Shown here: one piece after another, positions 3,649 to 3,933 of the stretch
Layout of the letters: each line of letters opens with the position of its first letter
Numbering within the stretch: position 1 is the first letter of the stretch
Virus record (IMG/VR): IMGVR_UViG_2706794670_000004
Strand: one strand, 5' to 3'
Origin: a virus
Taxonomy: Duplodnaviria > Heunggongvirae > Uroviricota > Caudoviricetes
DNA length: 4,649 nucleotides
Position numbers and translations under genes: made by a program
The notes under the pieces: generated by a model
Database searches by the model: none
Told to the model about the DNA's origin: nothing
What the model saw: only the letters and a program-made list of their open reading frames with translations

Positions 3649-3662
3649 TTTACGATCGTAAA
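3649..3662. repeat. 14-bp perfect palindrome TTTACGATCGTAAA (copy 1, abutting the N run)
   Basis: Its reverse complement is identical to itself. An identical copy sits at 3920-3933 on the other side of the N run. Confidence 0.9.
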
Positions 3663-3919
3663 NNNNNNNNNNNNNNNNNNNNNNNNNNNNNNNNNNNNNN
3701 NNNNNNNNNNNNNNNNNNNNNNNNNNNNNNNNNNNNNNNNNNNNNNNNNNNNNNNNNNNNNNNNNNNNNNNNNNNNNNNNNNNNNNNNNNNNNNNNNNNN
3801 NNNNNNNNNNNNNNNNNNNNNNNNNNNNNNNNNNNNNNNNNNNNNNNNNNNNNNNNNNNNNNNNNNNNNNNNNNNNNNNNNNNNNNNNNNNNNNNNNNNN
3901 NNNNNNNNNNNNNNNNNNN
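3663..3919. other. run of 257 N (assembly gap or masked sequence)
   Basis: Ambiguous bases only; content cannot be assessed. Confidence 1.
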
Positions 3920-3933
3920 TTTACGATCGTAAA
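3920..3933. repeat. 14-bp perfect palindrome TTTACGATCGTAAA (copy 2, abutting the N run)
   Basis: Identical to 3649-3662. Confidence 0.9.

Follow-up and report, generated by a model that had tools for sequence, protein, structure and literature searches.

A 14-nt palindrome written twice around an N run: a very probable scaffolding artefact at the putative late promoter pR' of a lambdoid prophage

The region just 3' of the antiterminator gene Q in H-19B, VT1-Sakai and related Stx phages carries the late promoter pR', and two sequence records describe it directly. In VT1-Sakai (AP000400), tttacgatcgtaaaaatctgcatatcat is annotated as a 'putative late promoter' and has at its start the 14-mer that is the subject of this report, TTTACGATCGTAAA; a 'putative Q-utilization' site and then a 'rho-independent terminator for pR' transcript' are annotated after it. 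The same 28 nt are annotated as 'late promoter PR'' in Ss-VASD (KR781488). Sy et al. mapped the pR' start in Sakai by dRNA-seq and placed it 258 nt from tR' (PMC7547250). Counting 258 nt back from the second terminator in Sp5 leads to the base 7 nt past the TATCAT that follows the palindrome; we used only this distance, as the Sakai Sp5 start coordinate (1,266,203) misses the promoter in NC_002695.2, presumably through a record-version offset. Q proteins of Pfam family PF06530 belong, by the naming in PMC9388147, to the Q21 family, and in phage 21 the Q-binding element consists of two direct TGAGCA repeats between -35 and -10 (PMC6606751). A technical comparison also applies here, the scaffold gap of negative size: the present locus resembles such gaps in its non-standard N length, in the identity of its edges, and in that joining them restores a sequence that is contiguous in finished assemblies.

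The window, by which we mean the whole 4,649-nt stretch of viral DNA analysed (IMG/VR record IMGVR_UViG_2706794670_000004), is part of a lambdoid prophage. Its main features are the following:

195-1586: DnaB-like helicase gene, with a small ORF next to it.
1840-2211: RusA gene.
2201-2587, plus strand: gene for antiterminator Q (Pfam PF06530, Q21 family), presumed to act at pR'.
3068-3631, plus strand: ORF6N-domain (antirepressor-like) gene, next to the gap on its left side.
3649-3662, plus strand: palindrome copy 1 (TTTACGATCGTAAA), the left contig's final 14 nt; real sequence, putatively the pR' -35/upstream-spacer box.
3663-3919, no strand: N run of 257 Ns; in all probability a scaffolding gap without real sequence, the true gap being -14 nt.
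3920-3933, plus strand: palindrome copy 2 (TTTACGATCGTAAA), the right contig's opening 14 nt; by the same reading, the genomic bases of copy 1 written a second time.
4092-4402, plus strand: four tRNA genes (Met-CAU, Arg-UCU, Thr-UGU, Gly-UCC), tightly packed at the head of the late operon.

Past the tRNAs, an IMG/VR contig identical to the joined form of the window described below (L042) continues into genes for holin, lysozyme, Rz, an HNH endonuclease, terminase and portal. The gap thus lies where a late promoter is expected, with Q upstream and lysis and terminase genes past the tRNAs, although some 1.06 kb, holding small-RNA genes (2615-3030) and the ORF6N gene, separate Q from the promoter. 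The presence of tRNA genes after the terminator is shared with Stx phages, which however carry Ile-Arg-Arg tRNAs at this position (compare the E. coli relative L001); the tRNA with a CAU anticodon might be a lysidine-modified Ile tRNA. Unlike the H-19B-type phages, the prophage has no toxin genes here, and the lysis cassette follows directly on the tRNAs. A promoter-like TTTGCA-18-TATTAT at window positions 4053-4082 (L156 3715-3744) ends 10 nt before tRNA-Met (4092). The exact ORF6N protein, read from the start at 3068, occurs in thousands of assemblies, among them more than 100 chromosome-sized records, and none is on record that begins at the upstream ATG (3062).

The N run is the only one in the window, and TTTACGATCGTAAA, which is its own reverse complement and hence a perfect 14-nt palindrome, abuts it on both sides. 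The identity of the two edges stops at these 14 nt, with ...GAAAAC to the left of the first copy and AAGTTG... to the right of the second. No other match to the 14-mer occurs in the window with up to two mismatches permitted; the chance expectation is 0.01 per window, two or more matches were seen in 0 of 200 shuffles, and the exact placement of identical 14-mers at both edges of an N run has a chance probability of about 4^-14. The duplication is not due to chance. The original prediction, made from the letters of the window, had reported identical palindromes bracketing the N run, and coordinates, self-complementarity and shuffles all agree with it. It had offered two accounts of this arrangement, an overlap of two contig ends and a hidden stretch of real sequence, and the comparison with independent assemblies separates them.

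We built a joined window by deleting the Ns together with one 14-mer (3663-3933), which leaves 4,378 nt. Four IMG/VR contigs (L003, L010, L024 and L042) match it at 100.000% over all 4,378 nt, with 0 mismatches and 0 gaps, and four more (L025, L029, L047 and L017) match it at 100% over partial lengths. Identity to the joined window is likewise 100% in the closed chromosomes L156, L157, L158 and L160, where the match spans 4,311 nt, and in L155 and L161, where it spans 3,955 nt; in all six of these chromosome-sized records the palindrome occurs once and Ns are absent. L160 among them is the chromosome of Shigella sonnei 2015C-3794 (CP022455), sequenced with PacBio. The identical copies read ...CCGAAAAC-TTTACGATCGTAAA-AAGTTGAAT..., with the palindrome once, and the ten NCBI loci that we fetched each contain a single palindrome and 0 Ns. 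The distinctive left flank of the window (...TTTTTTCCGAAAAC) stands directly against one palindrome in 12 IMG/VR and 10 NCBI loci. A scan of viral contigs with the right-hand junction returned 48 loci, which together with two E. coli loci make 50, all of them single-palindrome.

Complete E. coli genomes (more than 1,000, with about 93% identity at best) gave no close match, because the closest copies are those of Shigella sonnei; in these genomes the two flanks are always closer than in the window by 271 nt, the sum of the 257 Ns and one 14-nt palindrome copy. The E. coli relative L001 reads ...gaacgcTTTACGATCGTAAAaagttgaat..., again with one palindrome. In about 60 related prophage copies there were 0 cases of a second palindrome or an insert. 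The contig overlap of 14 bp proposed in the original prediction (...CCGAAAACTTTACGATCGTAAAAAGTTGAAT...) is therefore present base for base in every independent copy, closed long-read chromosomes included, and the alignment of both flanks to related prophages that had been suggested as a check finds them adjacent through one palindrome in the copies compared. A further chromosome-sized record, L162 (JBEAAG010000008.1), shows no difference from the others apart from nine single-base gaps; at one of them an A directly following the palindrome is absent, and further ones frameshift the helicase and Q genes. These gaps look like long-read homopolymer errors and not like real variation.

The same collections bear on the idea that something real lies under the Ns. 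A real insert of about 257 bp, such as a miniature transposable element, could have entered the pR' box, duplicated a 14-bp target and, being repetitive, stayed unassembled; direct repeats around the Ns do have the form of a target-site duplication, Shigella genomes are rich in IS elements, and transposase genes flank the prophage in L156-L162. Against this, the roughly 60 related copies, including closed genomes that are 100% identical on both flanks, contain 0 filled sites, so that a test for target-site duplication has only empty sites among related genomes to set beside a supposed insert that consists of Ns. A duplication of 14 bp is longer than is usual for enterobacterial IS elements or MITEs, and here it would have to coincide exactly with a perfect palindrome. 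Contig ends broken by a repeat would, moreover, normally run into that repeat and not stop at the duplicated target.

Nor is a pair of palindromes at such spacing found in other viral or species-representative genomes: a search for pairs spaced 240-270 nt had 0 matches in viral contigs and 0 in species-representative genomes, where the right-hand junction likewise gave 0, and no related locus contains two copies of the 14-mer. The same search returned six matches in metagenome contigs (L169-L174), which we rejected as unrelated, BLAST showing no similarity to the window or the prophage; they belong to a repeat element, AT-rich and about 290 nt long, in which TTTACGATCGTAAA lies inside terminal inverted sub-repeats. 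An insert is on these grounds very unlikely, and the 257 bp of hidden sequence that the original prediction had kept as its alternative finds no support in any collection searched. Were it true, pR' would be split from its upstream context by an element absent from all of them.

Two further readings would also place real bases in the gap. Since two self-complementary 14-mers are direct and inverted repeats at once, they could mark a local rearrangement, either a 271-nt unit that begins at the palindrome and is duplicated in tandem or an invertible segment between the palindromes, that was left unresolved or collapsed in assembly. Such a structure is absent from all relatives, a tandem duplication normally collapses in short-read assembly and does not leave a gap, and the flanks give no sign of a rearrangement; we regard it as extremely improbable. 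The description of the genome_contigs collection mentions a few stretches masked as N runs, and the Ns could accordingly be a deliberate mask laid over real bases by a contamination or adaptor screen or by the database. Masking, however, swaps bases for Ns and does not create a duplicate 14-mer at the edges, so that a real duplication would still be needed where no relative has one, and to this reading, too, we give almost no credence.

We are left with an account that we hold with high confidence: neither the N run nor the second palindrome is biological, and both result from a 14-nt contig overlap that was not merged and was padded with a wrong gap estimate. The course of events would have been as follows: (i) The window would be a scaffolded draft of a Shigella (sonnei-type) lambdoid prophage, in which a graph tangle among paralogous late regions may have left two contigs ending within the same 14 nt. 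(ii) The scaffolder would have set these two contigs, which truly overlap by TTTACGATCGTAAA, side by side, and the overlap, probably too short for it to merge, would have been neither recognised nor removed. (iii) Mis-mapped read pairs may then have yielded a wrong positive distance, and this estimate, 257, would have been written as Ns. (iv) The true sequence would be contiguous, ...TTTTTTCCGAAAAC-TTTACGATCGTAAA-AAGTTGAATATCCTG..., with the palindrome once.

Two observations count against this scaffolding account. The estimate of +257 is a large error for a true gap of -14, and the contig ends coincide exactly with the edges of the palindrome. By these features the locus also differs from other scaffold gaps of negative size, as its overlap is exactly a perfect palindrome, which invites a biological reading, and its estimate is unusually far from the true value. 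The suggestion that the palindrome itself had perhaps broken the assembly is improbable as far as secondary structure is concerned: single-stranded folding of the palindrome region is nothing unusual (z = +0.28), on which ground we rejected a block of assembly or sequencing by folding, and many other short-read assemblies of the same prophage run through the palindrome without a break. Among the matches listed, genomes with the identical prophage have no further copy of the 14-mer.

In the scaffold of a sister strain (L004), the ORF6N gene is interrupted at 3568-5532 by 1.96 kb from another lambdoid prophage, joined in through single-N gaps. This piece contains NinB-like, HNH-like and different Q-like ORFs, and it ends in a terminator of its own; it has 50 nt and 44 nt in common with the flanks, the 44 nt from the terminator tail onward. 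It is a mis-scaffold from paralogous late regions, and it shows that the neighbourhood is prone to repeats and that scaffolding does go wrong here.

With the sequence joined, the region to the right of the gap can be compared with the described late promoters. It matches the DNA just 3' of Q in H-19B, VT1-Sakai, BP-4795, CP-1639, Ss-VASD and others, and over the pR' region identity to H-19B, VT1-Sakai, BP-4795 and Ss-VASD is 85% over 89 nt. In 34 distinct contexts the 14-mer is followed by TATxxT at a fixed offset, by a conserved G[T/A]TAAGAGTGGTTAC and usually by a hairpin terminator. Judged by this homology, the single palindrome is an already known element, the -35/upstream-spacer box of pR' in lambdoid phages of the H-19B/VT1-Sakai type. 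The promoter elements are then assigned as follows:

3920-3925 (the same bases as 3649-3654), plus strand: -35-like TTTACG, by homology to annotated pR'.
3942-3947, plus strand: predicted pR' -10 element TATCCT, 16 nt past TTTACG, from the TAT at fixed offset and the VT1-Sakai annotation.
3950-3970, plus strand: conserved initial transcribed core TAAGAGTGGTTACtaCGCCAC, corresponding to the 'putative Q-utilization' region of VT1-Sakai.
3978-4003, plus strand: predicted intrinsic terminator tR', an 8-bp G+C-rich stem followed by a T-run, also returned by a terminator scan of the intact copy L156 (3640-3661).

The locus shares with H-19B, VT1-Sakai (Sp15), Sp5 and related Stx phages the same 14-nt box at the same spacing to a TATxxT -10; its initial transcribed core is almost identical to theirs, and its terminator is a hairpin of the same type. 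It differs from VT1-Sakai in that two terminators are annotated there and one is visible before the tRNAs here. A generic sigma-70 scan misses the promoter, because TTTACG and TATCCT agree with the consensus at 8 of 12 positions and the threshold is 9, so that the promoter is called from its homology to pR' as annotated and experimentally mapped elsewhere, and not from the scan. Transcription is predicted to start near 3954, and by homology the terminated RNA from pR' to tR' would be about 50 nt long; the RNA from 3954 to 4007 folds with -18.3 kcal/mol (z = -3.65). The core is nearly invariant across phages that differ in their -35 boxes, and it probably holds a sigma-dependent pause element. 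Rfam has no family for the pR'-tR' RNA. Its Trp-leader match at 3932-4005 was rejected, at 24.9 bits against a gathering score of 41 (E = 0.07), and is due to the terminator hairpin alone. A full-text literature search for the 14-mer found no paper.

RNA polymerase would thus start about 7 nt past the -10 element TATCCT, transcribe the core and stop at tR' unless modified by Q; the Q-modified polymerase, if Q acts here as it is presumed to, would read on into the tRNAs and then into the lysis and morphogenesis genes. The original prediction had recognised a terminator at about 3981-4003 and given it to the ORF6N gene. The terminator stands, but its assignment changes: given the homology to pR', with the palindrome as -35 box, it is better taken as the tR' of pR' than simply as the end of the ORF6N gene.

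In L026 and L159, which carry a variant of the same prophage, a deletion of about 38 nt (equivalent to window positions 3975-4012) removes the tR' hairpin, ...CGCCACACAG|AAACGGCACAGG..., so that the late operon would lack its terminator. Nine or more unrelated viral contigs (L073, L077, L080, L086, L092, L095, L097, L100 and L107) start exactly 48 nt before the 14-mer, which thus occupies their positions 49-62 in a different context (..GTGATTTT[T/G]GT|TTTACGATCGTAAA|TCAACACCTGATTTTCTG..); the shared start suggests a recurrent contig or provirus boundary.

The distance between Q and pR' is itself a departure from the H-19B-type phages, where the stop codon of Q lies inside the palindrome. The intervening DNA includes a module spanning 2592-3631, whose parts ahead of the ORF6N gene are these:

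2592-2621: promoter-like TTGACC-18-TATATT, which opens the module.
2615-2667: c4-a1b1 (Rfam, above the gathering score).
2628-2704: isrK (Rfam, above the gathering score), ending in a terminator.
2730-2813: C4 antisense RNA (Rfam, above the gathering score).
2947-3030: sRNA-Xcc1 (Rfam, above the gathering score), with the ORF6N gene next.

This arrangement resembles an antisense-controlled ant operon of the P1 immI or Gifsy IsrK type, and it looks like an antisense-controlled antirepressor module inserted as a moron between Q and pR'.

The box also varies together with the Q protein. The Q of the window is 81% identical to Q of the VT1-Sakai/H-19B type and shares with it an identical 15-residue segment in the predicted helix-turn-helix region; a label of '82-type' promoter was rejected, since this Q belongs to PF06530 and the Q21 family. 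To the solved phage 21 Q it is distantly related, over the N-terminal 78 residues only, with the C-terminal DNA-binding part unaligned. When late-promoter cores were sampled without requiring a palindrome, the 14-nt box fell, in the same register, into discrete families, namely TTTAC[G/A]ATCGTAAA, AA[C/T]GCGTACGCAAA, ..GCGGTCCGCA.., TGTGTTATAACAAA, TG[C/T]GGAATTCCAAA and TGTGTAATTACAAA, each of which is dyad-symmetric about its own centre. The box occupies about -34 to -21 and precedes the core TAAGAGTGGTTAC (window 3920-3933; loci L155-L282).

Across the 119 loci with an upstream Q-like gene, Q clusters formed at 75% identity map one-to-one to box families, with 0 exceptions, and it is in the predicted helix-turn-helix segment that the clusters diverge most. 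Because the box family tracks the Q cluster, the box becomes a candidate Q recognition site, and the pattern suggests the hypothesis that each box is the recognition element of its cognate Q. Physical linkage alone would also favour the co-inheritance of Q and box; the pairing holds over distances of -1 to about 2,300 nt from the Q stop codon to the box, with different inserted genes between them. As in phage 21, whose Q is of the same Pfam family, the candidate recognition DNA lies upstream of the late-promoter -10, but the box described here is a perfect 14-bp dyad that overlaps the -35 and is not made of direct repeats.

For the record itself, the Ns should be deleted together with the second palindrome to give the 4,378-nt sequence, as the uncorrected window risks the calling of two promoter boxes, of an inverted or direct repeat pair, or of a hidden gene. 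For the phage, the comparison reassigns the local features, so that the palindrome would be the -35 box of pR' and the hairpin tR', ahead of the tRNA and lysis genes. For the Q21 family, the co-variation of Q and box offers a candidate recognition site for a group of its proteins, with a layout unlike that of phage 21.
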